Made by a program: the position numbers and the translations under genes. DNA of 64,000 nt from the IMG/VR virus record IMGVR_UViG_3300020451_002055. One strand, written 5' to 3'. Numbering within the stretch: the first letter of the stretch is position 1; every line of letters begins with the position of its first letter. Positions 22,902 through 62,000 of the stretch are shown here, in pieces. The stretch is from a virus (taxonomy: Duplodnaviria > Heunggongvirae > Uroviricota > Caudoviricetes). Below the pieces are notes generated by a model. It saw only the letters and a list, made by a program, of their open reading frames with translations, ran no database searches and was not told the origin of the DNA.

Positions 22902-25900
22902 TTATGTATCTTGGATTGTCACGGTATTACTGCGAACAGTAACGCCAACCGATATGCCATCGAACGGAACGACCTCAGCATACCATTGGTCTCCTGCAGC
23001 CGTGTTTGTTGCAAGGATAAAGCCTTCGTTTGCCAGGCTAGCTACTTCTGAGAAGTCCTCTTCGCCGCTTCTCTTGCGATACCAGCGGATCGAGCTTTCA
23101 TCTTGCTGACTCTGCGAGCCCTGTGCAATGTCGTTATCGAAGAAGGTATAGTTCAGATCCAGGCCGGAATCAACCGCCGGGCTCTCTGGCGTTATGATAA
23201 CGCTTGATACGATCGGAGGCGCGTTCTCGACAGTGACCGGAGCAGAGCGGACAGGATCGCTAATTAGGTTACCAGATGCCGGTCGAACTTCGACTTCAAG
23301 AACATTGCCAATGATCATTGCAACAACTGCTCCGGAGATTTCGCCCGGTACGATCTCGTTATTGCTCAGCCCGTTGACAGACTCATTGAGAATGCCTCGC
23401 TTGAACTCGACGCCGTTGACATACCAAATGATCGTAGACTCGTTCTCTCCTCCATCATCGAAGAAGTTGAAGTCCGCGATAGCAGTAGTCGATGTAGTTA
23501 CCGTATCTTGGAGCCCGCCGGTTTGCGTTCTACCCCGGATAGATATCTCTGTAATGAATGGCGGGGCAGCTACGATCTCAACAGACGGAGAACGAATGAC
23601 TTCGCCAAAGTTGAGACCATCGCTCGGTCGAACGGTGAAGTATACAATGTCGCCTACAGAAACAAGGCTTTCTTCCCGCTCTCTAGCAAACTCTTCAATG
23701 CTTGTTCCGTCAGGCACATCTTCCGGCGTAAAGCTAAAGCCAAAGGACCAGATAGGGTCAAGGAAGTTGTTAATGTTGTTCCATTCTCTTAGATCGCGAA
23801 GGAACTCAGCTTCAACGCCGTTGATGTACCATCTGATCTGAGTCTGCTCAGTATCTTCCTCGTCTCCATTGAGATCAAAGAATCGATAGGTTGCAGAGAT
23901 AGTAGTATATGTTGCCGGAGCAGAAGGCACAACCCTAGGCTCTTGAGCTTCAGGCGGACGCTCCGAAAGCGGAGGCGGCAAGAATACATTGGTATTCCAC
24001 ATGTAGCCAACGCCTCGGATATTGATATCCTCGCTCGCAAAGCGATTGATAACTTGAATGCCGATTCTGAACTGGTCAGAATTCTCAATATCGATATTGA
24101 ATGGGCCGGTTCTCTTTCTCTTGAAGACGATCAAACCCTGTCTCGGGTATGCTCTGTATTCTGTTGCCTCGATGACATTATCAAGGGAATCTCGAACCGT
24201 AATCTGCGATGTCAAATCCCAAGCCCCGTAGGTAGTCTTCCATACAAAGCCATCGATATTGATCAGAGACTCTTTGAGAACTGCCTCTTCCTGATCCGTT
24301 CGAATAGGAATGAAGAGCTTTCCGTATTGATCTACTGCGGGCCTTGCTCCGGTTCTGAAATCTTCCCAAGAAGAAGAGTTACTTGTTGCGACTCCAACAA
24401 GAACTTCGCTCTCGGGCGGATCATTTGCATCGACCGCAACTGCGATCTGCTGAGCCCCAAAGAGGGAGCTATCTGCATTGAGATACAAGAAACTGATCTT
24501 GGGGAGGCTGTACCTGATGTTGATACCAGTCAATGCTGGCACGCCCGGCGTTGCCAGGTTCTCATATGCCTCCAAAATAGAAGCAGACAATCCGGAAAGC
24601 AGAGACACTCTAAACTTGAAGAAACGACCAGTCAGTCTAAAGAAGTCAACTTCGCTATTTGGACTGAACTGATCTGATGGTTCAGAAAAGTTGAAGCCAT
24701 CATCCGAAGCGGAAACCGTCCAGTTGCCATCAGTGTTCTCGAACAGAGTATAATCGAGAACGATTGAGTTGACAACGCTGATCTGACCGAGATCAATAAC
24801 AAGCTCGTAAGCACCGAAGCCGACAGAACCAGCGGCTCGACCGATCATGTTATTGAGTATTTCATTGAGGAAGTTAGCATCAAGAACCGTTTGCGATTGG
24901 CCTCCGGTTTCAGAAGCAATAACCTCAAGGTCATCCGTATCGGTTCTAGCCAGCAAAGCTGAAAGCGTTACGGGGAAAACGACTGAGAAGTTATTGACTA
25001 GAACCGGAACCTCAGCAAATCCATCGATAGCCTGAACATTCTCAAGAGCAGTCTCTAGGCCTATGAAGGATAGGCTCTCTTCATTGTCAGTCTGAACATA
25101 GATGACCTTTGAAGCAGTATCGAGAGCTTCATCAAGCATAACTTCAGCGATAGCGCCAAGGCCGTCATAGAACGGCGATGCTCCAAAGGGGACGGCGTTG
25201 CGAAGGCGCTCTACGATTTCCAAAGCCTCTTCAGCGGTTCCATCATTCGTATTGATGTAAGGAATAACCTGAGGAACCCATTCTATGTCGCTGAAATACT
25301 GAACAGACGGACTCTCTAGCTGCGGAGTCTGCGGAGGGTTAAGGTCAAAGACAGGATTATCTCTATCCGCCAGGTCATCGCCAATAGGCGTTCCGCCTGC
25401 ATTGTCGTCAACATCTGGGCCATCGTCATCGCCGTTGCCATCTGGATCTGGCGGTTCAGGAAGCTCTTGAGTTACAGTATACGAACGACATCCTTCAAAC
25501 TGAGGCGAATACGGATCTGTAGGAGGCGGGTCCAGAACATCCGGCTGACCGTCGTCGTCGGTATCATCATTCGTATCATCTGAATCATCGTCATCCCCGG
25601 TGTCTTGGAACTGGTCAGGATCTTCGTTGTCATCAAAATCGACAACCGTCTGACCATAATAGAAGTCATCGATAACGGTAAGCTGAATACGGATGACGTA
25701 TGGATTGCGAACGTCGCCCTCATTGATAATAAGCGGCTCAGTTTCATCTGCAGAATCGGTATCCTCTTGTTGTCGAGCAAGCTCAAGCTTCCTGCGAATC
25801 TCATCTACCTTGTCAAGAATGTCTTCTGATCTTGGTAGCAACGTAGTAGAAGCAAGACCATTGACAGCAATGATATCGTTGCTTGAGAAAACAACAGGAT

Positions 25901-28900
25901 AAATAAGAGCCGCACGACTTACATTGTCAGAGGCGGTCTGCTGGTCGTCATCGCTTCCGCCGCCACCACCCTGTAGATCATCTGCGTCGTCATCTTCCTC
26001 GCTATCCGGAAGCAATACGAAGCCTCGAACAAGAATTCGTATATCATCAGTCGGCCTCTCGCCAACATCATCAATGAGTTCGATATCTACGCCCGCCGAT
26101 TGCTTGCCATCAAGCCGTATGCGATCTGGCGTTACTTCTGCATTGATCTGCAAAAAGCCAGCAGGGCGACCGCTCGTAATGCCTCCGGCCACATAGACGT
26201 AGCGGAAGTCATCAGAAGTCATACCAAAAGCCTGCCTCGGGATTTCGACTCCTGCAAGCTCAGTAAACGTAAACGGATCAGGCGATACCGAAGGATCAAC
26301 AGATTCAAAAGTCCTTGAAACGCTTGCCTTTCTTGTCGCTCCTCCCAAGAAGTATGGGGTATCTTGGACGACTGCAGTTCCACCCTTGTATCGAGGCTGC
26401 GGAATATCTGCATAGTCCTGCTCGTCTCGCTCGATAGTCAACGTGTCAAGATCAATCTTGTAGGTATCAGTCAGGAAAATGATTTCCTGGCTCTGCCCTT
26501 CTCCGATTGGAACAGCGCCGCCTGAGACTCTAATGGTATTATCTGCTTCATTGTAGAATGCGAAAGGAGCAATACGCTCATAGAGAACCTCATCTTCGCC
26601 AGTAAACTGATCGGAGACGCTCCATTCATCAAGATCTATATCATAGATGACTACTCGGTCGTTTAGCTCCTGTATTCCGCCTTGGGATCCTACAAGCCTG
26701 ATGCCTCCAACAAAGTAGACCTTGCTGTCAACCTTGATAGCAGTCCCCATGGCAACGCCATACGAAAGGAAGTCATTGTCATCAAGAGTTGGCATCGATG
26801 TGATCGGCAGCCATGTATCGATAAGCGGATCATATACCTCGCAAAGTTGAGTTACGACAATACTGTTATCAACAACCGCGAAACCGCCAAAGACATAAAC
26901 TTTGCCCGCGTCCTCGATGGCATGGTGGTAGAACCTTGGCGTGGTCATTGGGGCCATGTCGGTCCATGTTTGCGAATCGATGCGATACTGCTCGTTGTAG
27001 AACGATACCGTATTGCCATCTAGACCGCCGATTGCATACAGGACTTCGCCGTAAGCGTCAAAGGTCCAAGTAAGAGTTAGAGCCCCTCTTGGATGGTTGA
27101 GATCATTTGGGAGGGATTCCCATTCATCAGTGACCGTATCATAGATATCGATCGTGCCGCTGTAGAGGTTGTTGATTACTGCTTCCTGATCGTCCTCATC
27201 CTCATCATCTGGCTGTTCGTCTTCAACCTCGTAGCGGATAGTTACGCATGCGGTCATGCTCCGCTCAGCATCTCCTCGCTTGTCGTAGTTTACCTCTGCT
27301 TGTATCTGAGCCTCAAACTCTTGAATTGGGCTCATTGGGAGAAGAGAGAAAGAGGCATAAGACCTTTCCTCTGATCCATCAATCAACGGATCAACAATAG
27401 TCTCTGTGAATACAACCTGCTGAGGCACTTGAATCTTAGTCGGATTGTTGCCGCCAACCGTTATGCGAATTGGAGTTCCGTTGGGAACAGGGCGTCCGGC
27501 AAACGATACTCTAACAACAAAGGTATGAGACGACTGACCATCAACCAAAAGCTCATTGACAGGCTCATTATCTCTTCGCACTTGAACAATGCGAATATCA
27601 AGCGGTTCTTTAAGCCTAACAATGCATGGCGGGATGCCGTTTTCTGCATCGCCGCCGCCAGAAAGGTATCTAATCTCTCCGTCGAGTTCGGTCTCAGTAC
27701 GACCGAAGATGATGTTGTCTCCTTGTTCCTCTCGGTAAGTAAAGTCAATGGCTGCGCATCGATTCTCAACCGGATCATTATCATCTCCTCCGCTAGATTG
27801 CGGAGGCGGGCCTATGAAGGTATTGATGCGAAGAAAAGCCTCTGTTGTCTGCTCTTCTTCAAGAGGTATAACCGCAAACCCTAATTCTTCCTCGTTATTC
27901 GAGAACGTGGGCTCATCGATGTAGGGATCAAAACCTATCTCAAGATCAGGTCCGTAGAGTATTTCGAAGTTATTACCTGTCTCTACCTCGACCGGCTGAC
28001 CGGTGTTGAGAATGAACAACGTTCCATTAAAGTCGTCTGCGCAAGAACGGAAAATTTGACCAAATAGTCCGCCTGCCTGGTTGGGGTCTTTCCATATGGT
28101 TAGTTTCTCGTAATCATATCCGTCTGCCCACATTTCGACTTGATATTGCCGTAGGTGCATAAGGAATCGAGAACCAAAACCGCCCTGAGTCTGCTGCGGA
28201 TAAATGAAGGCTGGTTTCTCATCGAATGCAGAAAGACCATCGTAAACGATGTCAGTCCTAATAGCATATAGCTCGGGAAGCAACTGCGGGCCAAACTGCC
28301 CTTCAAAGATATACCATGTAACACCGCAAGCCGGTCCAAAGAAGACTCTGCGTGCCTGTCCATTGATGACTCTAGAGAACACGCCGGGACCGGTTTGAAC
28401 GGCATTATCGGTAGAATAGAACGGCCTATCTTTTCCGGATACGCCCTTTCTTAGTCTCCATTTGACAATCTCGTTATCAGGTATTCTCTCTCTGCGGTCC
28501 GGGTTATCTGGATCAATCAGATATGCAGCGGCAAACTGCTCTGCAATATCAACGCAGTCAGGAGCCGGAACGCTTTCTGTCAACTCGATGCGAAGAATGT
28601 TCTCGAAAGCGATATAGAGCTTGCGGCGACCGAAGAAGCCGTTGTAGCTCGCCTTGGCAAAGAACATGACGCCCTGCGGGAAATCAGGAACTTGGAGCGG
28701 TATATCAGCATAGCTGAACTGAGTAATGACGCCTTCGTTGTCCTCTTCCTCTCCCAACAAAAGATCAACAGTTGTAGAGGGAGGAAGAACTGTCCTGCTC
28801 TTGCGATCAGAGAAGGATGGTTCAAATGGCTGCGGCGGATCAGAGTCATTGTCATCGCAATCAGGATCAGAAGCCTCATGCACAGCAACAAAGACCTTAC

Positions 28901-31900
28901 CGCCATCAGTAATGGCTTCGTCTCTATAGGTTACTCGAACCCTTGCAACAAAAGGCTCTTGCCTTCTAATGTATGTTCCATCAAAGTCTTTGGTCTGATC
29001 ACTAACAAGAAGACCGCCGGTGCTTTGCGTAAGAACATCATTGAGATCAACTGTTGCCTTGCAGACGTGTTCAACTCTATCTCCACGGAGATTGATCAGT
29101 TGCATACCGAACGGGTTGTCAAGCTTTATACTGATCGGTCGAGAGTTGAACTCAAAGATATTCGATGACGGGTTCTCCCTATCCGGTATTTCGAAAGATA
29201 CAAAAACGCTGAAGTTGATAGAGTTCAAAGCAGAAAGGATATCAAAGTCATCTGACATGCGCAAGATGCCTCGGATAACGCCGTTGCCTTGAGGAGTGGT
29301 AGTAAGTATGTGCGCCTCTTCGAAAGAGGGCGTAGTAGTATCTCTGTTGACTTGCTCGCCGAATACGTCTTCGCTGTTTCCCGAACCAGAGACGCTGCCG
29401 CTAGTCGTGAATTTCAGGTTTGACTCATCAGCGACAGGGGCTCCGAACTCATCGGTAATCTGAGCGAATAGAGCAACTCGCTGATCAAACCAGCCCTCAA
29501 GCGACTTCTGGAATATGACAGGCTGTTCCCAGGCTAAGCTGATCGCATCGTCAGTAACGACTTCATATCGAAGCTTGCGGACCTCAAGAAGCGGAATGCC
29601 AGTTTCATCAGCGTCTTCTAGAGGAGTCTCGCTTGTATAGGTTTCGGTTGAAACGTAGCCATACTTGTCTGTTGTTACAAATGCATAGAAGGCTTCTTGA
29701 TTATTAGGGATGTTCCTGTGAACAAAGCTAGTCTGGCTTGGATTGCCTCGGAAGATAAGCTCTGAATCTGAGTTTCCCTGCTCATCGATAATAGGGAATC
29801 GGTTGTCCGAGTAGAATATCTTGACTTCGCGAGCAGCATCAGTTAGCCCCGGAATCGACCACTGGAAGTATATCTTCCTATTGCCTACTTGAGTGGTTAT
29901 GTTCTGAATAGTTGGAAGAGCAGGAGGACCGCCGACTACTCTGTCGCGTTGCTCGTCGCTCTCAAACTCTGGTATTGTTACCGAAAGAACAGGAGAATCG
30001 CTCCATAGCGAATAGTTGCCTATGGCATTCTGGGAGAATATCTTGTAATGATACTCTCTGCCATGTATGAAGTCTTTAGATACTGTGAAGAAGAAGTTGC
30101 CCGGAGAGGCTTCTGATTCGTAGATAACAGTTCCGTCATTCTCATGGTACGGTATGTCGCCAAAACCGATATCAACTAGTTCAAAATCACCTGAATCTGG
30201 ATCATCTATTCTATCTTGAAGTCTTGGACCGGCTTCTTCCTTTTCAACAACTCTGACGTTACCATCAACATAGTTGTAATCTGCAGGAACCGTATAGTTG
30301 AATGCAAGTATGCGATCGCCGTTGTCTAGCTCTTTTTGCTCGTTATCGCCCGGAAGAGTTGCTGCTTCTTGTATGTAGAGAATATCTCTCTCAACGCTAT
30401 GGACAGATACTTCTGTTATCTTGCCAAAGAACGTAGAGGAGCCATCCAAAGCTCCTATCTCAAAGGAGTTAATGAGAGAGGCCACCGCGCTACCGCTAGG
30501 CAAAGAACCTTGAGCAGCGATCGCTCCATTCACATAGATGATTGCATTATTAGTATCCGGATTCCAGGTTACAGCAACATGGTTCCATTCATTCTCAATA
30601 AGAGGAGAAGATGACGTAGTAACACCTGTAGCAGCCCTATTCCAAATCTGCAAGTCTTTGCCTGCTCTGATAAGGAAAAAGCCAAAGCCCTCAATAAATG
30701 AGCCGGTCGGTCCTTTTTCTCCAAATACAAACTGAGCAACAGGATTGGCTTGCTCAAATGGCAGAATCCATGCCATAAAAGTAAAACCGCTACCCGCCCC
30801 CATAAGAGATGTGGAAGGGGTGTCTCTTAGGTGTCTCCAATACTGATCGATGCCATTGAGCCGGACGCCTGATCTTCCGATAGGCGTATCTTCCTCATTC
30901 AACCATCTTGGTTCTTCTTGATTGATGGCAGATAGATGGTACTGGTTCGGAGTAAAATCAAAGGCCTCTAAACCTGCTGCCTCGTTGAAATGCCAAAGCG
31001 CTGTTACGTCATCATCTAGACGGATGCCAGAGCCTCGAAGGATCGTAGCGTTAAAGGTTCCAATACCGTTGGGAAGGATTCGAGGGCGAGGTATAGCTGA
31101 TATCTGCTTGCCTTCGCTGAATGTTCCGAACTGATCATAGGTGTAGACTGTGTAGAAGTAGTCTTCGCCCTCTTCAAGATTATCGTCGAAAGCTCTGTCT
31201 AGGAAGCCTTCGGTAACAATGTCTCCGTCTACGGCATTGTTCGAGAACAGTGCTTCCTTGCGAAGAACCCGAACGCCTGCATATCCGCTTTCTTGGTCCG
31301 CGAAAAAGGCATCAGCAATAGCTCCGCCATCGCCGGTGTCCACTTGGTCATCCTCAATGACGGCAAAGAAGTTGACGCGAATCGGAGTTGATTCGAATGA
31401 GAATAGATTGAAGCTAACTTGGCCCGGATAGGTGGCATCGAGCCTAGTAATGAGGCGACGAAGAATCTCGTGGCGAGTCTTGGGCTCGTCGTTCCATGTC
31501 ATTGAACCAGACTGATCAACAAGCAGCGAAACAATTCGATCAGGCAACCGAAGAGAAACCTCATTGGTAACTCCGTCATCGTTTTGAATCTCTGTATTCA
31601 AAAAGACCGGGTTGGTGTCCGGATCATCAAACTTGTTGGTACGATCTATAAAGGCCTCTGCGGGCGGAGTCTGAATGACGCAGCCGGTCTCGTCAAGAGC
31701 ATCGACAAAGAACCACATAGTAAGAGCGAACCGGAGATCAGATGCCTCCCATCCTGCTCCGTCTTCATTGGTAAAGGACTGAAGAGCTATATAGGGGTCT
31801 ACATCAGAACTCGCCAAATCCCATACGATATATGAATCATCGTCGCTTCCGACCGGATATAGAGAGAATGAGAAGTTATTGTCGTAATCTACCGTTGATC

Positions 31901-32597
31901 CGGCAAACTTCTGCATATCAAAGTTGTATTGATCGTCCAGTTGTAGTTCGGAATAGGTAGATTTAGCGTCATAGAATGGACCCAATCCTCCCGGTCCGCT
32001 TGGTCCTGTTTTGTGAACGCCTGCATGAAGAGTGATGTATGGATACTGATCATACTCAACCGTGCCCGGAAGAGGCCCATTTGGAACGACGCAAATGTAA
32101 TCAACGTATGTATCAGCAGTCAGAACGCTAAGAGTGAGAACTCTATCTTGCCTGTCAGGAACGACGATCTCAGTGGATAGCACCTGCCAAGAGCCCGGAG
32201 AAGGAACAACTTCATCGGCATCTTGAACCTGGTCGCCATCCATGAACAGTCTGAACTGTATCTTCGACGATGAAGTCTTGTAGCGGATGTAAACGTCATA
32301 CCGTCTAGCATTCTCTGATCTAAACGGGTAATGGAGTTTGGACTTATCTGAGCCCGCTCCGAACTCCGTAAAATACATGGCTCCGAAGCCTGTCGAGCCT
32401 GCCTCGAATGGATCATGACGGACAGCCGGATTGCCTCGTTCCCATTCAGAGAAGTTTGTCGCGTCAATAAAGACAGGATCATCATCTGTAAAACTGAATC
32501 CGACGCCGGATTCTACGTTTGTGGGCCACAGGTATGTCGTTGCCTTACGAAAAGGCATATCGCTACTAGATATAAAGCCTTGGGCTGTTAGTTTCAT
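22902..32597 (-). CDS. giant multidomain putative virion protein (CBM-like, split vWA, FN3, LamG, Kelch propeller, three C-terminal Ig-like repeats)
   Basis: VDQSGSM MIDAS; ALWHFNE/FTFMAWI/EWNHVAVTW/FFGKITEV LamG; LYAIGG, VYVFGG, VYFVGG, YVAGG Kelch repeats; WY.NG...GD..Y..V.P.DG repeats; no signal peptide. Confidence 0.85.
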   Translation of the reverse strand: MKLTAQGFISSSDMPFRKATTYLWPTNVESGVGFSFTDDDPVFIDATNFSEWERGNPAVRHDPFEAGSTGFGAMYFTEFGAGSDKSKLHYPFRSENARRYDVYIRYKTSSSKIQFRLFMDGDQVQDADEVVPSPGSWQVLSTEIVVPDRQDRVLTLSVLTADTYVDYICVVPNGPLPGTVEYDQYPYITLHAGVHKTGPSGPGGLGPFYDAKSTYSELQLDDQYNFDMQKFAGSTVDYDNNFSFSLYPVGSDDDSYIVWDLASSDVDPYIALQSFTNEDGAGWEASDLRFALTMWFFVDALDETGCVIQTPPAEAFIDRTNKFDDPDTNPVFLNTEIQNDDGVTNEVSLRLPDRIVSLLVDQSGSMTWNDEPKTRHEILRRLITRLDATYPGQVSFNLFSFESTPIRVNFFAVIEDDQVDTGDGGAIADAFFADQESGYAGVRVLRKEALFSNNAVDGDIVTEGFLDRAFDDNLEEGEDYFYTVYTYDQFGTFSEGKQISAIPRPRILPNGIGTFNATILRGSGIRLDDDVTALWHFNEAAGLEAFDFTPNQYHLSAINQEEPRWLNEEDTPIGRSGVRLNGIDQYWRHLRDTPSTSLMGAGSGFTFMAWILPFEQANPVAQFVFGEKGPTGSFIEGFGFFLIRAGKDLQIWNRAATGVTTSSSPLIENEWNHVAVTWNPDTNNAIIYVNGAIAAQGSLPSGSAVASLINSFEIGALDGSSTFFGKITEVSVHSVERDILYIQEAATLPGDNEQKELDNGDRILAFNYTVPADYNYVDGNVRVVEKEEAGPRLQDRIDDPDSGDFELVDIGFGDIPYHENDGTVIYESEASPGNFFFTVSKDFIHGREYHYKIFSQNAIGNYSLWSDSPVLSVTIPEFESDEQRDRVVGGPPALPTIQNITTQVGNRKIYFQWSIPGLTDAAREVKIFYSDNRFPIIDEQGNSDSELIFRGNPSQTSFVHRNIPNNQEAFYAFVTTDKYGYVSTETYTSETPLEDADETGIPLLEVRKLRYEVVTDDAISLAWEQPVIFQKSLEGWFDQRVALFAQITDEFGAPVADESNLKFTTSGSVSGSGNSEDVFGEQVNRDTTTPSFEEAHILTTTPQGNGVIRGILRMSDDFDILSALNSINFSVFVSFEIPDRENPSSNIFEFNSRPISIKLDNPFGMQLINLRGDRVEHVCKATVDLNDVLTQSTGGLLVSDQTKDFDGTYIRRQEPFVARVRVTYRDEAITDGGKVFVAVHEASDPDCDDNDSDPPQPFEPSFSDRKSRTVLPPSTTVDLLLGEEEDNEGVITQFSYADIPLQVPDFPQGVMFFAKASYNGFFGRRKLYIAFENILRIELTESVPAPDCVDIAEQFAAAYLIDPDNPDRRERIPDNEIVKWRLRKGVSGKDRPFYSTDNAVQTGPGVFSRVINGQARRVFFGPACGVTWYIFEGQFGPQLLPELYAIRTDIVYDGLSAFDEKPAFIYPQQTQGGFGSRFLMHLRQYQVEMWADGYDYEKLTIWKDPNQAGGLFGQIFRSCADDFNGTLFILNTGQPVEVETGNNFEILYGPDLEIGFDPYIDEPTFSNNEEELGFAVIPLEEEQTTEAFLRINTFIGPPPQSSGGDDNDPVENRCAAIDFTYREEQGDNIIFGRTETELDGEIRYLSGGGDAENGIPPCIVRLKEPLDIRIVQVRRDNEPVNELLVDGQSSHTFVVRVSFAGRPVPNGTPIRITVGGNNPTKIQVPQQVVFTETIVDPLIDGSEERSYASFSLLPMSPIQEFEAQIQAEVNYDKRGDAERSMTACVTIRYEVEDEQPDDEDEDDQEAVINNLYSGTIDIYDTVTDEWESLPNDLNHPRGALTLTWTFDAYGEVLYAIGGLDGNTVSFYNEQYRIDSQTWTDMAPMTTPRFYHHAIEDAGKVYVFGGFAVVDNSIVVTQLCEVYDPLIDTWLPITSMPTLDDNDFLSYGVAMGTAIKVDSKVYFVGGIRLVGSQGGIQELNDRVVIYDIDLDEWSVSDQFTGEDEVLYERIAPFAFYNEADNTIRVSGGAVPIGEGQSQEIIFLTDTYKIDLDTLTIERDEQDYADIPQPRYKGGTAVVQDTPYFLGGATRKASVSRTFESVDPSVSPDPFTFTELAGVEIPRQAFGMTSDDFRYVYVAGGITSGRPAGFLQINAEVTPDRIRLDGKQSAGVDIELIDDVGERPTDDIRILVRGFVLLPDSEEDDDADDLQGGGGGSDDDQQTASDNVSRAALIYPVVFSSNDIIAVNGLASTTLLPRSEDILDKVDEIRRKLELARQQEDTDSADETEPLIINEGDVRNPYVIRIQLTVIDDFYYGQTVVDFDDNEDPDQFQDTGDDDDSDDTNDDTDDDGQPDVLDPPPTDPYSPQFEGCRSYTVTQELPEPPDPDGNGDDDGPDVDDNAGGTPIGDDLADRDNPVFDLNPPQTPQLESPSVQYFSDIEWVPQVIPYINTNDGTAEEALEIVERLRNAVPFGASPFYDGLGAIAEVMLDEALDTASKVIYVQTDNEESLSFIGLETALENVQAIDGFAEVPVLVNNFSVVFPVTLSALLARTDTDDLEVIASETGGQSQTVLDANFLNEILNNMIGRAAGSVGFGAYELVIDLGQISVVNSIVLDYTLFENTDGNWTVSASDDGFNFSEPSDQFSPNSEVDFFRLTGRFFKFRVSLLSGLSASILEAYENLATPGVPALTGINIRYSLPKISFLYLNADSSLFGAQQIAVAVDANDPPESEVLVGVATSNSSSWEDFRTGARPAVDQYGKLFIPIRTDQEEAVLKESLINIDGFVWKTTYGAWDLTSQITVRDSLDNVIEATEYRAYPRQGLIVFKRKRTGPFNIDIENSDQFRIGIQVINRFASEDINIRGVGYMWNTNVFLPPPLSERPPEAQEPRVVPSAPATYTTISATYRFFDLNGDEEDTEQTQIRWYINGVEAEFLRDLREWNNINNFLDPIWSFGFSFTPEDVPDGTSIEEFAREREESLVSVGDIVYFTVRPSDGLNFGEVIRSPSVEIVAAPPFITEISIRGRTQTGGLQDTVTTSTTAIADFNFFDDGGENESTIIWYVNGVEFKRGILNESVNGLSNNEIVPGEISGAVVAMIIGNVLEVEVRPASGNLISDPVRSAPVTVENAPPIVSSVIITPESPAVDSGLDLNYTFFDNDIAQGSQSQQDESSIRWYRKRSGEEDFSEVASLANEGFILATNTAAGDQWYAEVVPFDGISVGVTVRSNTVTIQDT

Positions 32598-32637
32598 AGA
32601 TTACACTCAGCGTCTATCAGAATATCGGCCAGCGGAC

Positions 32638-38841: not shown

Positions 38842-38893
38842 CTAGATACCCTTTATCCAGAAGTTACTATACCTGAATCATCGACCAAAACGG

Positions 38894-43462: not shown

Positions 43463-43465
43463 ATC

Positions 43466-51889: not shown

Positions 51890-51898
51890 AGACTATAC

Positions 51899-53032
51899 TC
51901 AGATCCTTACGGATGCCTGGTTAATACGCAGCGCTCCCTCATCAACCGTAACGGTAGCTTCTGCGGACAAAAGATTGGGTCGGACAAAGCTAATTTCCTC
52001 TCGATTCGCAAAGTCCCTCCTAGACTGCCAGAGCAGACGATCGCCTTTATAGACCCTACCATCTGATCGACCAGCATAGACATTAGTACCATTGCTGAAC
52101 ACGGCTCGCAGATCAAGGCTTGAAGGATCATCAAATCCGAACATCATTGTGACCTGATCTTGATTAGATAGATCAGAGAAGGCAACAAACTCGCTACCTA
52201 GATTGATATGCCTAGCTACTATTTCAGATGAAGCTTGATACTTGTTCGTGAAGAAAAGCTCATCTATCGTTCCAAAATGATTTCGAACAAGACCGCTAAA
52301 GCCCGGAGCGGAGTCATTGATGCGTAGAGTTCTTGGAGTCAGGTTGTTTCTATCGATTAGCTGAGGTATTTCTGAACCGGTTACAATTGATGTGGAGACC
52401 CTCTTGCCATCAATATACAAAACGATCGATCGAGATGCTCCGCTGTAGGCAATGTAAAAGTGATGGAAATCGCTTGTTGAATAGGTTTCATTGCTTCTAA
52501 GAACAACGTCTCCCGTAGTGCCTCCGAGAAAGATATACATCTGATTTCGCTCGTTCTCTACTGACTCCTCAAAAATGCAGAACCCGGTTGATGCTTCATA
52601 GATATTGGTCGTGTTATTCAGTGAAATATTAGAAGCATTGATCAGAGCCAAGCGGTAGTAGCTCGTTTCGTTTGATTCAAGAGATAGCACCGGTCTAAGC
52701 CAAACAGGTCGGAGCCAAAAGCCAAGAGAAAATCGACTTCTAGCGCTAAAGTTGACATTTACATCAACGCCGGATGTAGGCCTCATCCTCAAAGCTCTAC
52801 CGGAAACTCCCTCAGCAAAAGTGGGATTTGTATTGCCTCGAATATTGGCATTGCGACCAGATATCTCATCTCGGATAGGAAGACTCTCAAACTTGATAAG
52901 GCTAGGCGCTTCTCTGTTGCGTCGGAAGATTATTTCTCGAACGGACTCAGCGCTAACTGTAGCAGAGCTTGCTATGTCAGATACAAATGTTCTTTGGTTT
53001 AGGTTTGCCATATCATACCTTTGAGAACTCAA
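51899..53032 (-). CDS. LamG/concanavalin A-like domain protein (putative structural)
   Basis: EGVSGRAL, FSLGFWLRP, DFHHFYIAY, LYIDG, GTIDEL. Confidence 0.82.
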   Translation of the reverse strand: MSSQRYDMANLNQRTFVSDIASSATVSAESVREIIFRRNREAPSLIKFESLPIRDEISGRNANIRGNTNPTFAEGVSGRALRMRPTSGVDVNVNFSARSRFSLGFWLRPVWLRPVLSLESNETSYYRLALINASNISLNNTTNIYEASTGFCIFEESVENERNQMYIFLGGTTGDVVLRSNETYSTSDFHHFYIAYSGASRSIVLYIDGKRVSTSIVTGSEIPQLIDRNNLTPRTLRINDSAPGFSGLVRNHFGTIDELFFTNKYQASSEIVARHINLGSEFVAFSDLSNQDQVTMMFGFDDPSSLDLRAVFSNGTNVYAGRSDGRVYKGDRLLWQSRRDFANREEISFVRPNLLSAEATVTVDEGALRINQASVRI

Positions 53033-54539
53033 GAGTCAAGGCAAGTCTATTATTCTCTTGTCCTGCATTATCATCGTCCAGTTCTCTCTCAATCCATATG
53101 TAGATTGCTTCTTTGGGGCCTAGCGTGGTCGAATCCCTTTCCCCGGAGGTCGATCTCTGTCCTCCAACATCAATGCTGACTCCAGAGGCAAAGCCATCTG
53201 CGCTTTGAAAATCCTCGATCAAATAAGGGGGAGCTATATCCGGACCAGTATTGTTTGCAACTTGAGGTTTGGTTACTCCGCTTGGTATTCTCTGAGATGG
53301 AGCAGTATCAACGTAATATCTATCTCCCGATGCAGGCACGAATGGCAAATCCTCATCAAAGCTGAACGTGCCCGTTGCTCCGTCGTATGCGGTTACAACT
53401 CTAGACTGACCCGCATTTTGTCCTGTCGTGAACACGACCGGAGCAGTCACATAGTGATCGTCTGCAAGATCATTCGCAAGAGACGAATCAACTACAGAGG
53501 AAAGCGTTCCGCCTGTCGCTGAAGAAGATCTGTATTCGCTTCTAGGGATTTCGATCGAAAGATTCCATCTCGACCCATTATTTCTACTAGGTATCTTGAC
53601 ATATACCTCTGCTTTTCTTGCATTTAGGCCGCTAGATTCATTGCGAACTGCAATGCATCGATATTGACGCCTATCCTTACTGAATCCTGAAGTGAATACG
53701 CTGTTCTCTGAAAGACCTCGGACAACAGCGCCTCGGAAATGGACTCGCAGAGGCGTGTCAAAAGCATTTCTTGAAGAAACGATTGCAGTATTACCCGTCC
53801 ATGTTTCTACCTGAATGATTTCATCTTGAATCTGTATATAGTCGTATGCGGTCAGAGAATCATCAGCGCACTCAATCTGCCTATCAGTAAAAGAAACCTC
53901 GGATGACAATGTGGTAGACGGTATAACTTCGGTTGGACTAATAAAGCCGCCTATAGACTGAGCCGGGTTGGACTGAGCCAAGTTCGGCTCAACGCTGGTT
54001 AGGTAATACTTGATCTGAGGCTTGATGTCAACGGGTTCAGGCGGATTGATTTCTCCGATATCAAGGCCAGAGAAAAAGTACGACCATTGATTAGTGGCAT
54101 CGAAGATTCCGCTCTTAAGAAGAGAGTCAACATCTGATAGCTCAAAATTATTGAGAACATTCGCTACAACGCCAGGAACATTGCTGATCAGATCAGCGAG
54201 TTCGATCAGAGCCATGCCTTCTACTAGAGGAATCTGTATCGGATTGGCTAGATCTCCATTGACTGTTCTGAGCCATCCGTAAAATACCTTACGACCTCCC
54301 GTGCCTTCTTGAACGCTAAAGTAGGCATCGGTATAAGGGGAATACGGGTCAGCATTATTTGAGTATGCTACTCTAAGAACAGCGTCATTCGTATCAAGAT
54401 CAGCCGTTGGGTCAAATGCATCGAAGAGGACTTCATCGTCCTCTACATCAGGAAGCAAATCTGAACTATTGGGCGGAGATGAGGTCTGAGGACTAATAAA
54501 TCCTCCGCCGACTCCGCTAGGCCCGCCGAAACTACTCAT
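53013..54539 (-). CDS. putative phage structural protein
   Basis: SIGGFIS..., YRCIAVRN, GQSRVVTAYDG...PASGDRY, L.P.E..YIWIER modules resemble phage virion accessory proteins. Confidence 0.7.
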   Translation of the reverse strand: MSSFGGPSGVGGGFISPQTSSPPNSSDLLPDVEDDEVLFDAFDPTADLDTNDAVLRVAYSNNADPYSPYTDAYFSVQEGTGGRKVFYGWLRTVNGDLANPIQIPLVEGMALIELADLISNVPGVVANVLNNFELSDVDSLLKSGIFDATNQWSYFFSGLDIGEINPPEPVDIKPQIKYYLTSVEPNLAQSNPAQSIGGFISPTEVIPSTTLSSEVSFTDRQIECADDSLTAYDYIQIQDEIIQVETWTGNTAIVSSRNAFDTPLRVHFRGAVVRGLSENSVFTSGFSKDRRQYRCIAVRNESSGLNARKAEVYVKIPSRNNGSRWNLSIEIPRSEYRSSSATGGTLSSVVDSSLANDLADDHYVTAPVVFTTGQNAGQSRVVTAYDGATGTFSFDEDLPFVPASGDRYYVDTAPSQRIPSGVTKPQVANNTGPDIAPPYLIEDFQSADGFASGVSIDVGGQRSTSGERDSTTLGPKEAIYIWIERELDDDNAGQENNRLALTLEFSKV

Positions 54540-56008: not shown

Positions 56009-56011
56009 TTA

Positions 56012-59000
56012 TTATTCCTCAGGAGGCGTCTCAAGAGGACCGTCGCCGCCGCCTGCCCATTGGCTATTGCCTCCGGTTTCGCCGATGTCTTCCTTGCCCC
56101 TATTATCGACGCCAAACCTGTTCTTCTTGTAGTATGCAGGATTTCCGAATGATCCTCTGACATCATCCTCGCTATAGTTCTCAATAAAGAGATCGAGGTT
56201 GTTGAGAATGGAAATGCTCTGATCCAAGTTTTGCGGAGACAAGAGACGTAAGAGCCTTTCGTTCTGATCAGCAACCGAAATTGGATTGCATTGACCCGGA
56301 ACGCTGATCAAGATAACCGCCAGACCGTCAACATTGACAACGGTATCGTCTTCCTCAACGATAAATGAACCGGAATAAATGCCATCCGATTGCTTCGTAA
56401 GCGGAAGATTTAGCTGGTCATTCAGCCCTTGCTGGTAGACGCTAAAAGTCAGACCGGAAAGAGATGAGTATCTATCAAGGGAACGAACTCGCTCTAGAAG
56501 TTCAAGCCTTTCCGGGTCATCAAAGGTGACTCGGAGATAGATAGTATTCTGATCTTCCTCTGCAACCTCCTCTGAGATGGACTGTAAATTCTCGTCGGTG
56601 ATTCGAGTTGCAGTCTCCTTGTTTCCAAGAACCGGGTAACTATTGTATGAAGCAACTGGGTTCTCAAAAGCTTCATCATAGAAGAAGTCGATCTTATATC
56701 GAAGCTGCTTATAGATAGCCTGGAACTCAATGCAGAACTGCTCCGTCTTGCCAAAGTAAGTAAGAATCTCGCAACAAACCCTTTTGGTCCCATTGCCTTC
56801 CGAAGCAATCCATGGAGCTATGAAGCGGTCTTTCGATATGAAGTATCCTCGGAAGAAGTCTCGCTCGGCAGCAGTACCGTCAGTATCGGTGCGCTGTTCT
56901 GGAAGGTTTGGGCCAATAGGTAGCCATTCGGTGAAATCATCATCTTCTTCGTTCTTGAGACGGTAAGCGTAGGTGCCTGGAACTCCGATGATATCAAGCT
57001 CGATGAAACAGTCGTTGACAACCGGTATTGGGCTGTCGATATCAAGGTAGGTCGAGTATACGACATACTCATCTCTGACTCTCATCTTCTGATACTGCTC
57101 GATGTCCCGCTCCGGACCGGCGGTTACATAGTAGAACGTCTCGTCCGTGCCATCAGTGAACATGCATGGAACAATAAGGTCTGGATTGAAAGCTTCGTAA
57201 GCACAACCAATACTGCATCCTTGATGGTAGACCTTGGTTCCGTCATGAAATGCGGTATTGATGTTCTGGAACGGGTCAATGAATACCGTAGCATCATGAA
57301 GGACAAGGTTTGTCAGATCAGGCTGATCTGCGTCTGCCGATTCTGCGAAGTACGTCATTCGTCGATCGTAGCTGCCTTGAGCAGACGAGTAGAACTTGTC
57401 TTCAGCAGCATTGTAAACGCCAAAGAAGTAGTCCGGAGAAAGAGCAGGCTGATCTGACTGCATGCGGGTAAAGCGATAGTCTTGCCATGAGATGTAGAAC
57501 AGGTCGTTCCTAGCGGCATCTACCCTTGCATTGATCGCCTCTCTATCGGTTTGCGTTATGCGATAGTCGTCAAAGCCCTGACCACTGCAAAGCCAACTCA
57601 TAGAGTCCTTATCTTCTCGCCAAATATCCGCATCCGTCTGACTGCATGGGCAAAGGAACGAGCCTTCTCGGATTGTAGTAAACGCTCCCTCGTAGAATCG
57701 CTCGATCTTGTAGTAATAGTTGACACCGCAAAGCAATGGCTTCTTGAATACAGGATTAGCATTAGCATCTGCTGGCAATACAGCAACAGAAGAGAGGTAA
57801 GACTTGTCTGCCTCTGAGTAGAAGTCTGCCGCAATGCGTATGGTCTCAAGGTCGCCCAAGACCGTTCGGAAATCGGTTTCGGTAGCAGCAGAAAAGCCTC
57901 CGCCGCCTGCAGGTTCATATGTCCAGTTTGAAGTGCCCGCCTGAAGGGGCAGAGAGAACTGAGTGTATGAACTGTTGCGATCCGGCCTGCTGGACGCAGT
58001 ATAGCGAAGCGTTGCTCCGCCATTAGCCTCTAGATCAACGATTAGGTTCTGAGAGCCAGCAGAAGGACTATAACCGACATCGAGTCTCATCGATATTTCG
58101 AGCTTGCCTCCGTAATGGCCTTCGAGATCTCCGGAGAACTTTGGCGGAGCAACAAACCATGCGTCGGAAGGAAGGCTATCAACATAGCTCAAAGCTCCGT
58201 TACCATTGTCGTTTTCCCATGTAGCCTGAACCGTGCCAGAGGCGTCTTCGACTTGCCAATCATCGGCCCCAAAGGTAAAGAAGCTTGATATCGAGCGCCT
58301 ATTGTCCTGAGCGCCCTGATCCTCGAACTTCTCAAATGGCAAAACTTCCGGGTCGAAACCAATGGTGATTGTATCGTTCTCGGTGACATCTACGCCATCT
58401 GCGGGAAAACCATTCGGGCCAAAAACCCAACCGTCTGTATCGAATAGCGTAAAAGCAGAGTAGATTGTAGACTCCATATCGCTATCTGCGAAGAACGAAA
58501 TACGGAAATGAAGATCATTCTGAGTCAGGTCGTTGTTGTTGAAGTAATCTGTCTCGATAGCGCATCGAGGCGACTGCTCAAACGGGCAATGGTAAACGAA
58601 GTCTGACGATCCGCTAACTTCGGCTAGCGGAGCAACAACAACCCTAATCGAGTCGATGAGGTTACCAGAAACCGCCATAGTTCCGGAGATAGTTCTTCTA
58701 TCCGCGGAAATTCTTAGAACGTCAGTCTCGCTATCAAGTCCGCCAGTGGAAGCATCAGTAGCATAAGTTATGTCGTCTCTGCCGAGAGTTGGGTTTGTTT
58801 CGGAAAGAGATGAGTTACCTGCATAGATTGCCAAGATCGGCCCCTCGAAAGTAATCGAGAAGTCGCCCGTGCCGCCAGAGGTTGTTGGATCATACTGCAG
58901 GTAATAAGAAGCAACGATCTCACCCTCCTCAAAACCTTGCAATATACCAGAACCTCCAATTGCAAAGTCCGGAGTGCTTTCAGACTGCCCTATAGTGTCA

Positions 59001-62000
59001 AGAATATCAGAAGCATTTAGAGCAACCTGAGCGAACTCAGCCTCCTTGAGCGATTCCTTGAAGAAAATAACGCTGTCATTCTCGTAATCGCCAGCTTCAA
59101 TGCTTGTCCCGAAAGGAGGAGTGACGGATACCGCGTCCTCAAACGAGGCAACATCTGCTTCATTGACTTCAACGCTCTCGTAAACAACATCTACATAGTA
59201 GATGCGGTCGTCAAGACCATCGTCATCAGAAACAGTGTAAGACACAGAGATCGTCTCTCCTATGGGAACGAAAATTCCGTCAGCGTTCATCTGAGCGCCA
59301 TTGACCTTCCATCCTAGAATGCTCTCTCTTGAATCAATAGATTCAGCCAGCATAGTCTTATCTCTGTCAGAATAGAAGTTCAATACGAAGTAGAACGTGC
59401 CTGAGCTTTCTGCCTCAAAGCTGAACTCAACTCCGCATGTTAAGGCATCAGGAACAGAATCAAGATATGGATCATATGGATCAAGGTCTTCTTCTCTCTG
59501 ATATCTAAACTCATTTGCCTCATCAATACGGCACTGATTGATGTACATAGGGTCTTCTATGCTGTTCAAAGCAGCGTATATCTGATGATATCTACCTCTG
59601 CGGTTATCATGCCATGCAACAACCCTGCGCCCCTTCTTGTCAACTCCAATAGAAGGCTCAAGGCTATTGCCCGTTGAGTTTGTTATTCTAGTTTCAAACC
59701 TAAAGGGAGTTGATCTATTTCGCATACCAGCATAGTAGATTTCCCAGTATTCATCTCTGTTCGACTGCCATACAATATGGGCCTTACCCATGGTATCAAC
59801 AGCCAAATCAGGATTGCGATTCTGGTTCTCGGTAGATAGCGTTATAGGGAGTCTAGTTATATCCCCGAAGGTAGAAAGCTGGAAGTTGATTGCATATTCA
59901 TCAGAAGAGACAAGTATCTCATCATTAGCATTCTGAGAAACGAGTTCATTCGGTATCCTAGATACCTGATACACTCGAACTGCATCGATAATGGGAGCGA
60001 AATCCTTGAACGGAGACTGACTATCGGATACGTTTTGGAATCGTATCGTAGTCGATGTGGACGACGCAGTAAACTTGACGACATATGTAGTCCAGTTAGG
60101 CTCGGTCTCCCCAACTCGAATCGTTGTTTCGAAAGTCTCATCTGCTGCGGCTGCAGTTACTCGAACCTTTCGAGTAACATCAACGCCCAAAGTCTGGGAA
60201 GCGTCAGGATTGCTCGACAAAACGAAAGATATGGAATACTCTTCTCCTACCTCAGTTGCCAACGTCTGCTCTATAAAACCGAGATTGGAGTCATCAACGC
60301 CTGTCAGTCCGACCGAATAATCTCCGATGAAGGAGACAGATCCAGCCGGAGCATAACCTACGCCGATCTCGTTTCCGATAACCCAAGGGGAAATAGACTC
60401 ATCGCCCGGCACCAGACTGACAGAGGCCTGAACCGGTAGCGTATTCGACTCAAAGTCTCCGTTGAGGAGAATATCATTGATCGTTTCAGGAACAACCATT
60501 TGAGCAGTCGTTCTATCATGAGCGGAAAGATTGATATATGCTGTGTTCGCCTGAATAGAATGAGGCCCGATAGCAGCATTCTCATACTTGAGAAGAAGCG
60601 GTCTATCATCATACTCATTACCGTTAAAGGGCAACTGCTCTTGAGTCAAGAAGACATTGTTGTCCGGCCAGCCTAGACCTATATCAAATGCTCTATACTG
60701 ATCTGAAAAGTCAGCAATGAAGTTCTCGCCGAGTTTTATCTCATTGTCAACCGTAACTATGATATCGCCATGGAACCTGGAGTTTTGTTCCGAAGCATAA
60801 GGGTTGATAGCGAGTCGCCCATCAATGTAGTCTTGGTTTGCCTTACTGTAATGAATGGCAACCTTGATGTTCTTGGCTTCCTCAAAATCGATTGGATCGC
60901 CGAACTGTCTGAGCAAATGATACTTCTTGTTCGCAGCATCACCGGTTGATTCATCTTCAGATGTAGCCAAGACTAGAGCAAACTTATAGCGACCAGTATA
61001 TACTACTTCCTCAATCTCTCGGATGTAGGTGTCAGCGCTTCCTGTAGTAAGCTCGTTCCTCTCCAAATATCCGAATAGCGGGTCTACATTCAAGGCCTTG
61101 AATCGAATTTTTTCTGGCATCAAGGCAATCATGAAGTGATTGAGGTTGCGACCAGAGTTGGCTACAACAGCATCGATATCTTCGGCTGATACAAACTCTG
61201 CAGCTTCGGTATGAGTTACATGGCGAGCATCGGTTCCTCCAGATTCAGAAGAGCCGCTGAAGTCGCCGAACTTGTAAGCTCCCACAACTGGAATGATCTT
61301 GTCGTAGAAGGCATCGTACCTGTCAAGCGTAAAGACATTGAGATTCTTGACATATGTATCATTGACCGACTTAGAGAACTGACTCTTGAAGTCTCGGAAA
61401 CGCTTGTCAATGTCTGCCTCGTCCAGTCGAGGATAAGCCGTATCATTGAGCGAGGTTACAGATAGATCGAATGAGACCTGATAGCTTAGCTGAGAAAACA
61501 GCCCATCGAACTCAACATCGCTCTGATCCTTGTCAAGACGATAGACAGCCATAGCCGCCCCATCTGCAGGAGAACCCTCGATGCCGACTGTGCTTGAGCC
61601 GCTAAGAGAGCAACCGGCTGTTCCGGCCAAGAACCTCGTCCATCCGGTCTGCAAAGCGGTAGGCTGAGTGAACCGGACAAGAGAACTGGCGAAGTCGTCT
61701 CGCAACTGCTGCTTCTCAAGAGCGGATACAAAAACCTGATTCGAAACGATCTTCGATCCGGGACCAAGGATACTGTAGTATATCTGCGTGGGACCGCCGT
61801 TGCGGTCTGACTCCCATACAAGATGCAGATTGCCCATGCTATCGCATTCTGCTCTTGCGTTTTTGTTCTCTCCCTCGAAGGTGATCTGCTTCCATTCGAG
61901 ATCGCTATCGACGTTTCCAAGCGAGAAACCAAAGTAGAATAGCTGGTAAACTCCGTTTACCGGAGCCTGACAGATAGCGTAACAATAGGAAGAACCATTA

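Follow-up and report, generated by a model that had tools for sequence, protein, structure and literature searches.

RESULTS

A giant-protein cluster carries a recurrent Asp-Pro-Tyr motif

The window analyzed here is a stretch of 64,000 nucleotides from an uncultured tailed phage (Caudoviricetes; IMG/VR record IMGVR_UViG_3300020451_002055), and the element under study is the tripeptide Asp-Pro-Tyr (DPY), which recurs in giant proteins encoded there. Every gene of the window lies on the minus strand. Positions 1-22877 hold a replication module that includes the PHP part of DnaE, a DnaB helicase, an intein-bearing AAA ATPase, a D12-class methyltransferase, a helicase, and a metallophosphatase. 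At 22902-63703 are the genes of eight proteins, whose lengths are 3231, 2067, 1522, 2807, 377, 508, 490, and 2563 amino acids (aa; 13,565 aa in total). Their modules, as matched by Pfam, are LamG, Kelch, fn3, Ig-like, CBM/DUF642, Laminin_B, GH56-like, and propeller; Kelch and WD40-like propellers are both encoded in the cluster, and blades and repeats are common to several of the giant proteins. PHROG matches were weak and limited to single domains (fn3 to tail-fiber protein J and Kelch to "virion structural protein"), and the giant, adhesin-like proteins are probably outer-virion proteins. They belong to a clade of marine phages with genomes of roughly 0.5 Mb. Judged by sequence comparison, DPY is a real, selected, protein-level motif of these proteins and not a product of chance.

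An earlier note on this DNA had read ten exact DPY tripeptides in the cluster, and all ten are found in place on the minus strand, as are the two variants that it named, EPYDPNP and EYGPY (Table 1). Its rough estimate that composition would yield two or three was sound: the computed expectation is 2.27, against 10 observed in 13,565 aa, or approximately 3.5 with a first-order correction calculated by hand from dipeptide counts. The note had also seen no DPY by eye at 1-22877, and the 22 open reading frames (ORFs) of the replication module indeed contain none (0.9 expected). Among D-x-Y tripeptides, DPY alone is enriched (DGY occurs 5 times against 3.4 expected and DAY twice against 3.1), and several DPY sites have Asp-rich flanks.

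Taken by itself, DPY gives a Poisson p of 1.3e-4 and ranks second among 8000 tripeptides in the eight cluster proteins. After correction, however, the DPY count in the window is not significant, as 32% of 2000 shuffles yield a tripeptide at least as extreme and the Bonferroni p is 1. In the enrichment test that the note had proposed, the uncorrected excess stands and the corrected significance in the window does not, an outcome that the note itself had formally named as counting against its idea. The arrangement of the sites is significant: the probability of at least two directly adjacent pairs, given the per-protein counts, is 4e-5.

The codons of the sites are varied, as the note had remarked. 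The ten sites use seven different 9-mers at background codon usage, and an exact 9-nucleotide (nt) tandem occurs only in the DPYDPY of the 2563-aa protein. An origin at the DNA level (repeat, slippage, or a GATC/Dam site in GAT-CCN) is ruled out by varied codons at background usage, and recent identical DNA units are ruled out by the seven 9-mers together with the persistence of sites down to approximately 30% protein identity. Seven different 9-mers for ten sites indicate, therefore, that selection acts on the protein.

Table 1. Motif sites, the proteins that carry them, and the neighboring glycosyltransferase genes, in coordinates of the window
Feature	Position	Strand	Remarks
DPY, residue 267 of 3231-aa protein	31791-31799	-	
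DPY, residue 1557 of 3231-aa protein	27921-27929	-	
DPY, residue 2361 of 3231-aa protein	25509-25517	-	Context DPYSPQF, acidic low-complexity linker
DPYDPNPY, residues 831-838 of 2807-aa protein	49376-49399	-	One exact DPY, residue 831
DPYDPY, residues 1295-1300 of 2807-aa protein	47990-48007	-	DPY at 1295 and 1298
DPY, residues 1410-1412 of 2807-aa protein	47654-47662	-	
DPYSPY, residues 64-69 of 508-aa protein	54333-54350	-	DPY at 64
DPYDPY, residues 1408-1413 of 2563-aa protein	59465-59482	-	DPY at 1408 and 1411
Loop between Cys1391 and Cys1423 of 2563-aa protein	59435-59533	-	Holds DPYDPY
Variant EPYDPNP, residues 349-355 of 1522-aa protein	42398-42418	-	
Variant EYGPY, residues 2536-2540 of 2807-aa protein	44270-44284	-	Start of first C-terminal beta-sandwich repeat
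Cryptic variant DEY, residues 1927-1929 of 2807-aa protein	46103-46111	-	
3231-aa giant protein	22902-32597	-	LamG, Kelch propeller, partial vWA (Pfam)
1522-aa protein	38894-43462	-	fn3
2807-aa protein	43466-51889	-	Ig-like N terminus, LamG-like domain, sialidase/PLL-lectin-like beta-propeller, two C-terminal beta-sandwich repeats; five motif loops
508-aa protein	53013-54539	-	Carries DPYSPY
2563-aa protein	56012-63703	-	CBM/DUF642, Laminin_B, propeller blades, beta-sandwich repeats
Three overlapping glycosyltransferase genes, 25 nt downstream of 3231-aa gene	20274-22877	-	GT2 22125-22877, GT4 21013-22128, GT2 20274-21029 (Pfam)

The motif is conserved in five protein families

Conservation in orthologues, which the note had named as a check, bears the motif out: nine sites in five protein families are retained, most of them down to 30 to 40% identity. 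For the 2807-aa protein, a database search gave 48 full-length orthologues at 76 to 27% identity, and no relative was found among GenBank phages. Three loops of this family retain the motif, as DPYxP(D/N)PY at residue 831, DPYDPY at 1295, and DPY at 1410, and the most distant members have xPY or xEY there. The 831 loop reads DPYxPDPY in many orthologues, and 42 of 43 sequences retain its second Tyr. DPYDPY at 1295 is retained down to 27% identity, with a column conservation of 0.6 to 0.9 in the motif against 0.1 to 0.3 in the flanks, and the Tyr of site 1410 is kept in 35 of 42 sequences. The flanks of the motif loops are variable and rich in indels.

The number of units at one and the same loop ranges from 1 to 4 between lineages. 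The loop that reads DEY in the window (alignment columns 2589-2601), for example, reads DPY, DPY...DPY, or DPYDPYNVDPY elsewhere, that is, one to three DPY. EYGPY is nearly invariant throughout the family. Family-wide, DPY occurs 128 times against 14.9 expected and is spread across 21 distinct columns of the alignment. Among the 15 tripeptides with the strongest enrichment by total occurrences, no other spans more than 10 columns.

The other four families vary in how far their sites reach. In the 2563-aa family (11 sequences, down to 30% identity), the P and second Y of DPYDPY are invariant, its remaining four residues (D, Y, D, and P) reach at least 90% conservation, and Cys1391 and Cys1423, which bracket the loop, are both invariant. 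Related-locus searches with the 3231-aa protein, with P0083, or with P0078 alone gave no relatives; alignments and genome searches did. Site 267 of the 3231-aa protein is DPY in all 8 orthologues that cover the region (41 to 70% identical over the query). Site 1557 is retained in 4 near orthologues and in 4 of 5 aligned far ones, with D-E-D or D-E-A instead in a middle clade, and site 2361 is retained in the three closest orthologues only. The EPY column of the 1522-aa protein is DPY in 12 of 18 relatives, both near and far. Among four near orthologues of the 508-aa protein, three have DPY and one has NPY; farther orthologues lack the motif.

The motif lies in low-confidence loops and excludes phenylalanine

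The note had placed DPY in loop-like contexts, and AlphaFold models agree: the three modeled tandem sites all fall where the predicted local distance difference test (pLDDT) score is below 50, in segments that are loop-like and predicted to be flexible. Residues 780-1480 of the 2807-aa protein give a beta-sandwich followed by a sialidase/PLL-lectin-like propeller, with a mean pLDDT of 84 and a predicted template modeling score of 0.80. Only four segments of this model have pLDDT below 50, and two of them hold the two multiunit sites, DPYDPNPY at 831 (model residues 49-64) and DPYDPY at 1295 (model residues 513-532, between two propeller strands). Site 1410 begins a predicted helix (model residues 632-638). 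For the 2563-aa protein (residues 1150-1700; model pLDDT 74), DPYDPY lies within a segment of pLDDT below 50 (246-270) between propeller blades and a beta-sandwich, and DSSP shows a three-residue helix after it.

Across five motif columns of the 48 sequences of the 2807-aa family, the motif generalizes to [D/N/S]-[P/E]-Y in 1 to 4 nearly adjacent copies. The first position prefers D over N over S over T or G, the second prefers P over E over A, S, or T, and the third is Tyr. Phe takes the place of Tyr in 3 of 204 cases (1.5%) in these columns, against 552 of 3816 (14.5%) in the 86 other Tyr-majority columns of the same alignment (Fisher p = 4e-6 for Phe versus other replacements). Y and F interchange freely, by comparison, in the propeller-blade motif GWS[DE]P[YFE]. 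Because Phe almost never replaces the motif Tyr, the Tyr hydroxyl appears to matter.

The pattern has features of three kinds of element. As in a sequon, a short consensus, [D/N/S]-[P/E]-Y, sits in low-confidence loops with its Tyr retained and Phe excluded. As in an Asx-Pro turn or helix N-cap, D, N, S, or T is followed by Pro or Glu. As in a short linear motif, a conserved island stands within variable flanks at pLDDT below 50.

One pair of sites is homologous and belongs to a widespread beta-sandwich module

The note had held that the sites stand in nonhomologous contexts and are convergently placed. For one pair, this is incorrect. A profile-profile comparison pairs DPYDPY (2563-aa protein) with EYGPY (2807-aa protein) at an hhalign probability of 99% (E = 2.9e-18), and both stand at the N-terminal edge of a common beta-sandwich repeat. 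With at least one homologous pair, convergence everywhere does not hold, and the twin-DPY loop belongs ancestrally to a module that is widespread. For the sites of the 508-aa and 1522-aa proteins, single-sequence queries of low sensitivity detected no homology to sites of the 2807-aa protein.

A search of 1.84 billion cluster representatives found the beta-sandwich module in 72 proteins, and all members that were looked up are metagenomic. DPY precedes 31 of 78 domain instances in cluster representatives at 50% identity. The leader mostly takes the form DPY-x(0-3)-DPY, can extend to three or four units, and is often bracketed by two Cys; no such leader precedes second copies of the domain. At this boundary, a more distant family carries QQDPYLAS, and its C terminus has a conserved EDPYFVFGDPNY. 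In ten distant homologues without the motif, DPY is absent against an expectation of 4.3 (summed expectations), and four of the ten bear cellular or domain names.

Several features of the module and its carriers were seen in passing. In the window (58604-60256 and 43466-44400, minus strand) the module is without a Pfam match and has a core motif that resembles F-Y-x-D-(R/P)-E-(K/R)-T, and second copies start with F-x-Y-C-P-x-E-Q-x-x-(R/K)-C. The distant giant proteins of the A3 family (P0073-P0084; 2200 to 3700 aa) have a very Cys-rich region at consensus positions approximately 420-1000, with CCCC runs and dozens of invariant Cys, and, at the extreme C terminus, a conserved tail, EDPYFVFGDPNY. 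The twin-DPY module also occurs in a 3293-aa protein (P0109; NCBI MAG26191.1) that is deposited under a metagenome-assembled genome named "Candidatus Pacearchaeota archaeon"; its source is probably a phage contig that was placed in the bin of a cellular genome.

The excess of DPY is confined to the giant-protein cluster

Relatives of the locus sit on IMG/VR contigs of 170 to 548 kb, two of which, 488 and 498 kb long, have direct terminal repeats. The note had proposed a contrast between structural and nonstructural proteins, and relatives place the excess of DPY in the giant-protein cluster only. In a complete IMG/VR relative (G002, 488 kb), 479 ORFs were called, which contain 20 DPY in all where 14.8 are expected. 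Of these 20, 11 fall in the four giant orthologues (1.56 expected) and 9 in the remaining 475 ORFs (13.2 expected); DPY is absent from 8 of the 9 other ORFs of at least 1000 aa. Across 22 IMG/VR loci, ORFs of at least 1000 aa have 60 DPY against 12.7 expected, and smaller ORFs have 6 against 7.4.

Glycosyltransferases and other candidate enzymes

The note had suggested that DPY is read by the three glycosyltransferases (GTs) encoded beside the cluster. Their NCBIfam matches all fall below curated cutoffs, and the nearest named relatives, far below those cutoffs, are the generic polysaccharide or small-molecule enzymes EpsE, TuaG, BshA, and MshA. An attempt to assign an acceptor from NCBIfam and PDB homologues failed, as no family of known acceptor scored above its curated cutoff. 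Orthologues of the GT2 at 20274-21029 and of the GT4 are present as single copies in 17 of the 18 to 19 relatives' records searched, where they are syntenic and lie downstream of the 3231-aa orthologue, mostly within 10 kb. In three relatives (L015, L024, and L019), the 2807-aa and 1522-aa orthologues are free of DPY. Both GT orthologues are present in L015 and L024, and L019 has Pfam-level GT2 and GT1 matches only. That the flanking GTs read DPY is not supported by this distribution, which takes in relatives with no DPY. Because the GTs are core genes of the module, there is no variation to correlate with the motif, and on gene content the sequon idea is neither supported nor excluded.

Other modifying enzymes were also considered. 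A sulfotransferase (PF13469) is found in just one of five large or complete relatives, which does not make it the conserved enzyme that Tyr sulfation by the phage would call for, and a host enzyme is possible. A conserved phage enzyme for Tyr sulfation or Pro hydroxylation is ruled out, as the genes are sporadic, each in one of five genomes. When GTs, sulfotransferase, and 2OG-Fe(II) oxygenases were compared in relatives, no conserved candidate enzyme that covaries with the motif was found. We note the genes themselves: a Sulfotransfer_3 gene at G002:C1:243948-244523 and, in a second relative, two 2OG-Fe(II) oxygenase genes above the family cutoff (G003:C1:269411-269677 and 408878-409123), plus a third, weaker match.

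DISCUSSION

Asp, Asn, Ser, or Thr followed by Pro or Glu is the preference at the N-cap and N1 positions of helices and in Asx-Pro turns. Because the pattern suits such a turn or cap, each [D/N/S]-[P/E]-Y unit may most simply be a short, self-capping turn that presents a Tyr, and the substitution pattern then has an explanation that calls for no enzyme. The Asp, Asn, or Ser side chain would cap the backbone, Pro or Glu would occupy the first turn position, and the Tyr side chain would be held toward solvent. The units themselves sit on flexible loops rich in indels, at domain boundaries in some cases and between strands of the sialidase/lectin-like propeller in others, and selection would maintain the turn and, above all, the Tyr hydroxyl. 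That the motif is conserved within low-confidence loops, does not admit Phe, varies in copy number, and is limited to the products of one cluster argues for a role of the Tyr beyond stabilizing the fold. A pLDDT below 50 in an otherwise confident model is typical of segments that are ordered only on binding, and the motif loops may order only when they pack against a neighboring domain, another subunit, a partner protein of the same cluster, or a ligand. Such a role needs no enzyme. We therefore favor, tentatively and as a possibility short of an even chance, that the motif loops serve as noncovalent contact points in the assembled appendage.

Several points weigh against contact points. The contact partner and surface are hypothetical, and the label of virion component for the giant proteins derives from weak PHROG matches and gene position and from nothing else. 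Exposure of the motif Tyr is read from pLDDT and predicted secondary structure only, and alignments within indel-rich loops are uncertain. Moreover, a low pLDDT is equally expected of a site of posttranslational modification that goes unmodeled, copy-number variation and the strict need for a Tyr hydroxyl suit a modification acceptor just as well, and the three GTs stay in the same operon throughout the clade.

These last points lead to the idea that the motif tyrosines are acceptors of a covalent modification, most simply O-glycosylation in the cytoplasm by the three downstream GTs, with the D-P-Y turn as the recognized feature. The motif lies in loops that the models suggest are exposed, its Tyr hydroxyl is retained and Phe is excluded, its units are multicopy and variable in number, and it is limited to products of one operon that ends in GT2-GT4-GT2, of which a GT pair is syntenic across the clade. 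There are also precedents. Tyr O-glycosylation does occur on bacterial S-layer proteins, as the note had stated, and the capsid and tail of mycobacteriophages are glycosylated by phage-encoded GTs in work by Freeman et al. (2023) as it is cited in PMC12582341. The S-layer glycan's transfer, however, is thought to occur on secretion and by an O-oligosaccharyltransferase, not by soluble GTs (PMC2943079), and the chlorovirus protein Vp54, which has N-glycans at noncanonical sites, uses Asn as the acceptor (PMC5408694). Virus-encoded virion glycosylation thus resembles the present case in having GT genes beside structural genes and in offering precedents for atypical acceptor sites and for a Tyr O-linkage, and it differs in that the present case is known from genes alone and its GTs do not covary with the motif.

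Other evidence turns us away from a modified Tyr. The relatives with no DPY in their 2807-aa and 1522-aa orthologues still have GTs, and those GTs resemble polysaccharide or small-molecule enzymes (EpsE and BshA/MshA) and match below every curated cutoff. Approximately ten sites in 13.5 thousand aa, at deeply conserved positions, are unlike a shielding glycan. The exchange of Pro and Glu at position -1 is natural for a turn and awkward for a tight sequon, and the genes for a sulfotransferase and for prolyl-hydroxylase-type enzymes are sporadic. We consider covalent modification of the motif Tyr by any route unlikely, and the particular version in which the GT2-GT4-GT2 operon O-glycosylates D-P-Y tyrosines in the cytoplasm as a Tyr-directed sequon would be less likely again. 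The interpretation of the note as a whole is partly supported.

Alternatively, the motif might be a purely local device of the fold, in which the units form turns or cap helices and are neither read nor contacted by anything, the Tyr acts as a linker "stopper" that rigidifies domain junctions, and recurrence reflects descent of the modules. The order of D, N, or S and then P or E suits this role, site 1410 caps a predicted helix, and the DPYDPY and EYGPY sites of the 2563-aa and 2807-aa proteins, respectively, are homologous. In many representatives, the twin-DPY leader has come down together with the beta-sandwich module, and the giant proteins have blades and repeats in common. An element that determines the fold should model with confidence, however, yet the tandem sites fall below a pLDDT of 50. 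A single loop can hold anywhere from 1 to 4 copies, Phe is excluded from the motif even though Y and F swap freely in the structural context of a blade, and the ten distant homologues without the motif have no DPY where chance would supply some. Finally, the sites of the 508-aa and 1522-aa proteins have no detectable homology to those of the 2807-aa protein. We doubt, on balance, that a fold device would account for the motif.

Chemistry at the motif itself is a further candidate, as coordination of Fe(III) or Ca(II), as oxidative Tyr-Tyr cross-linking, or as self-cleavage at Asp-Pro followed by cross-linking. The last has a model in the "clip-and-link" activity of FrpC, which cleaves itself at a labile Asp-Pro bond and then cross-links and in which a Ca-dependent module of approximately 170 residues comes after the scissile D-P bond. 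Asp and Tyr are both conserved here, the Tyr hydroxyl appears to be required, the units occur in tandem, the loop of the 2563-aa protein lies between two invariant Cys, and several sites have Asp-rich flanks, all of which is indirect support. Frequent Asn or Ser in place of Asp would weaken both metal binding and Asp-Pro cleavage, and Glu in place of Pro would abolish the labile bond. No self-processing module appeared in general Pfam scans of the giant proteins, although no search was aimed at one. Chemistry of this kind seems improbable indeed. Lastly, that DPY is the luckiest of 8000 tripeptides in loop-rich proteins containing Asp, Pro, and Tyr, as the shuffles and the Bonferroni value from the window would allow, is already refuted by the comparative data, namely conservation of nine sites in five families, independent replication in G002, tandem adjacency, and recurrence before 31 of 78 domain instances, and we give it a negligible chance.

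The motif loops may be compared with known elements of three kinds. Asn-Pro turns in the NPNA repeats of the Plasmodium circumsporozoite protein exemplify the Asx-Pro turn. The Asx-Pro turn and the helix N-capping box share with the motif a D, N, or S (also T or G) followed by Pro or Glu, a short length, and the capacity for tandem arrangement, and one site here starts a predicted helix. They differ in that a strictly conserved Tyr follows here and excludes Phe, and in that the units are limited to one set of phage proteins, where they are islands of conservation in variable loops; the likeness is one of sequence pattern. A literature search found no paper on the Asx-Pro turn comparison, and a query with DPYDPY gave irrelevant papers only.

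Short linear motifs have mostly been described in intracellular proteins of eukaryotes and include motifs bound by Kelch or WD40 propellers. The DPY motif is like them in spanning 3 to 6 residues, in being a conserved island within low-confidence, indel-rich segments, and in being multicopy. Moreover, it occurs in several proteins of one cluster that also encodes Kelch and WD40-like propellers, which are candidate readers. Here, however, the carriers are giant phage proteins and the reader domain is only hypothetical. The third kind is that of the His-x-His metal-binding repeats in the long and short tail fibers of phage T4, which are likewise a tiny, repeated, phage-fiber-specific motif that functions through side-chain chemistry and assembly. 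They differ in the residues involved, and the present motif lies in loops of propeller and beta-sandwich modules and is known from sequence and models.

Huge phages spend tens of kilobases on giant multidomain proteins, and the DPY motif marks the few positions that selection keeps fixed. Deeply conserved, confined to these phages, and multicopy, it provides concrete targets for mutagenesis, mass spectrometry, and multimer modeling. We know of no Tyr sequon for any virus. If it is true that the operon GTs read the motif, D-P-Y would be a new protein-glycosylation sequon and a portable tag, and it would represent the first sequon-directed tyrosine glycosylation of a virus particle. If instead it serves for docking or contact, the motif would reveal how the appendages hold together. 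Either way, the motif is a sequence signature by which this class of giant phage proteins might be recognized in metagenomes.

OTHER OBSERVATIONS

Two further genes of the window deserve mention, both on the minus strand. The 2067-aa protein (32638-38841) is the largest cluster protein without any DPY, and its residues 1072-1254 match a GH56 hyaluronidase-like domain with an E value of 9e-7. The 970-aa AAA+ ATPase of the replication module (9893-12805) has an intein between the halves of its AAA domain, with an Intein_splicing match at residues 405-785.

Stop codons stand out at three further loci. L018 (IMGVR_UViG_3300045125_000158) was left out of the analyses; its positions 10001-11943 give a 35% tblastn match to the propeller region, yet TAA, TAG, and TGA crowd all three forward frames and there is no long ORF. 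The GC content is 33%, and candidate causes are an assembly with many errors, decay of the gene, and a spurious match made by joining. A GT2 orthologue at G018:C1:152710-153423 has one in-frame TGA, and the N-terminal part of a 3231-aa orthologue at G010:C1:28619-29464 has one TGA and three TAA.

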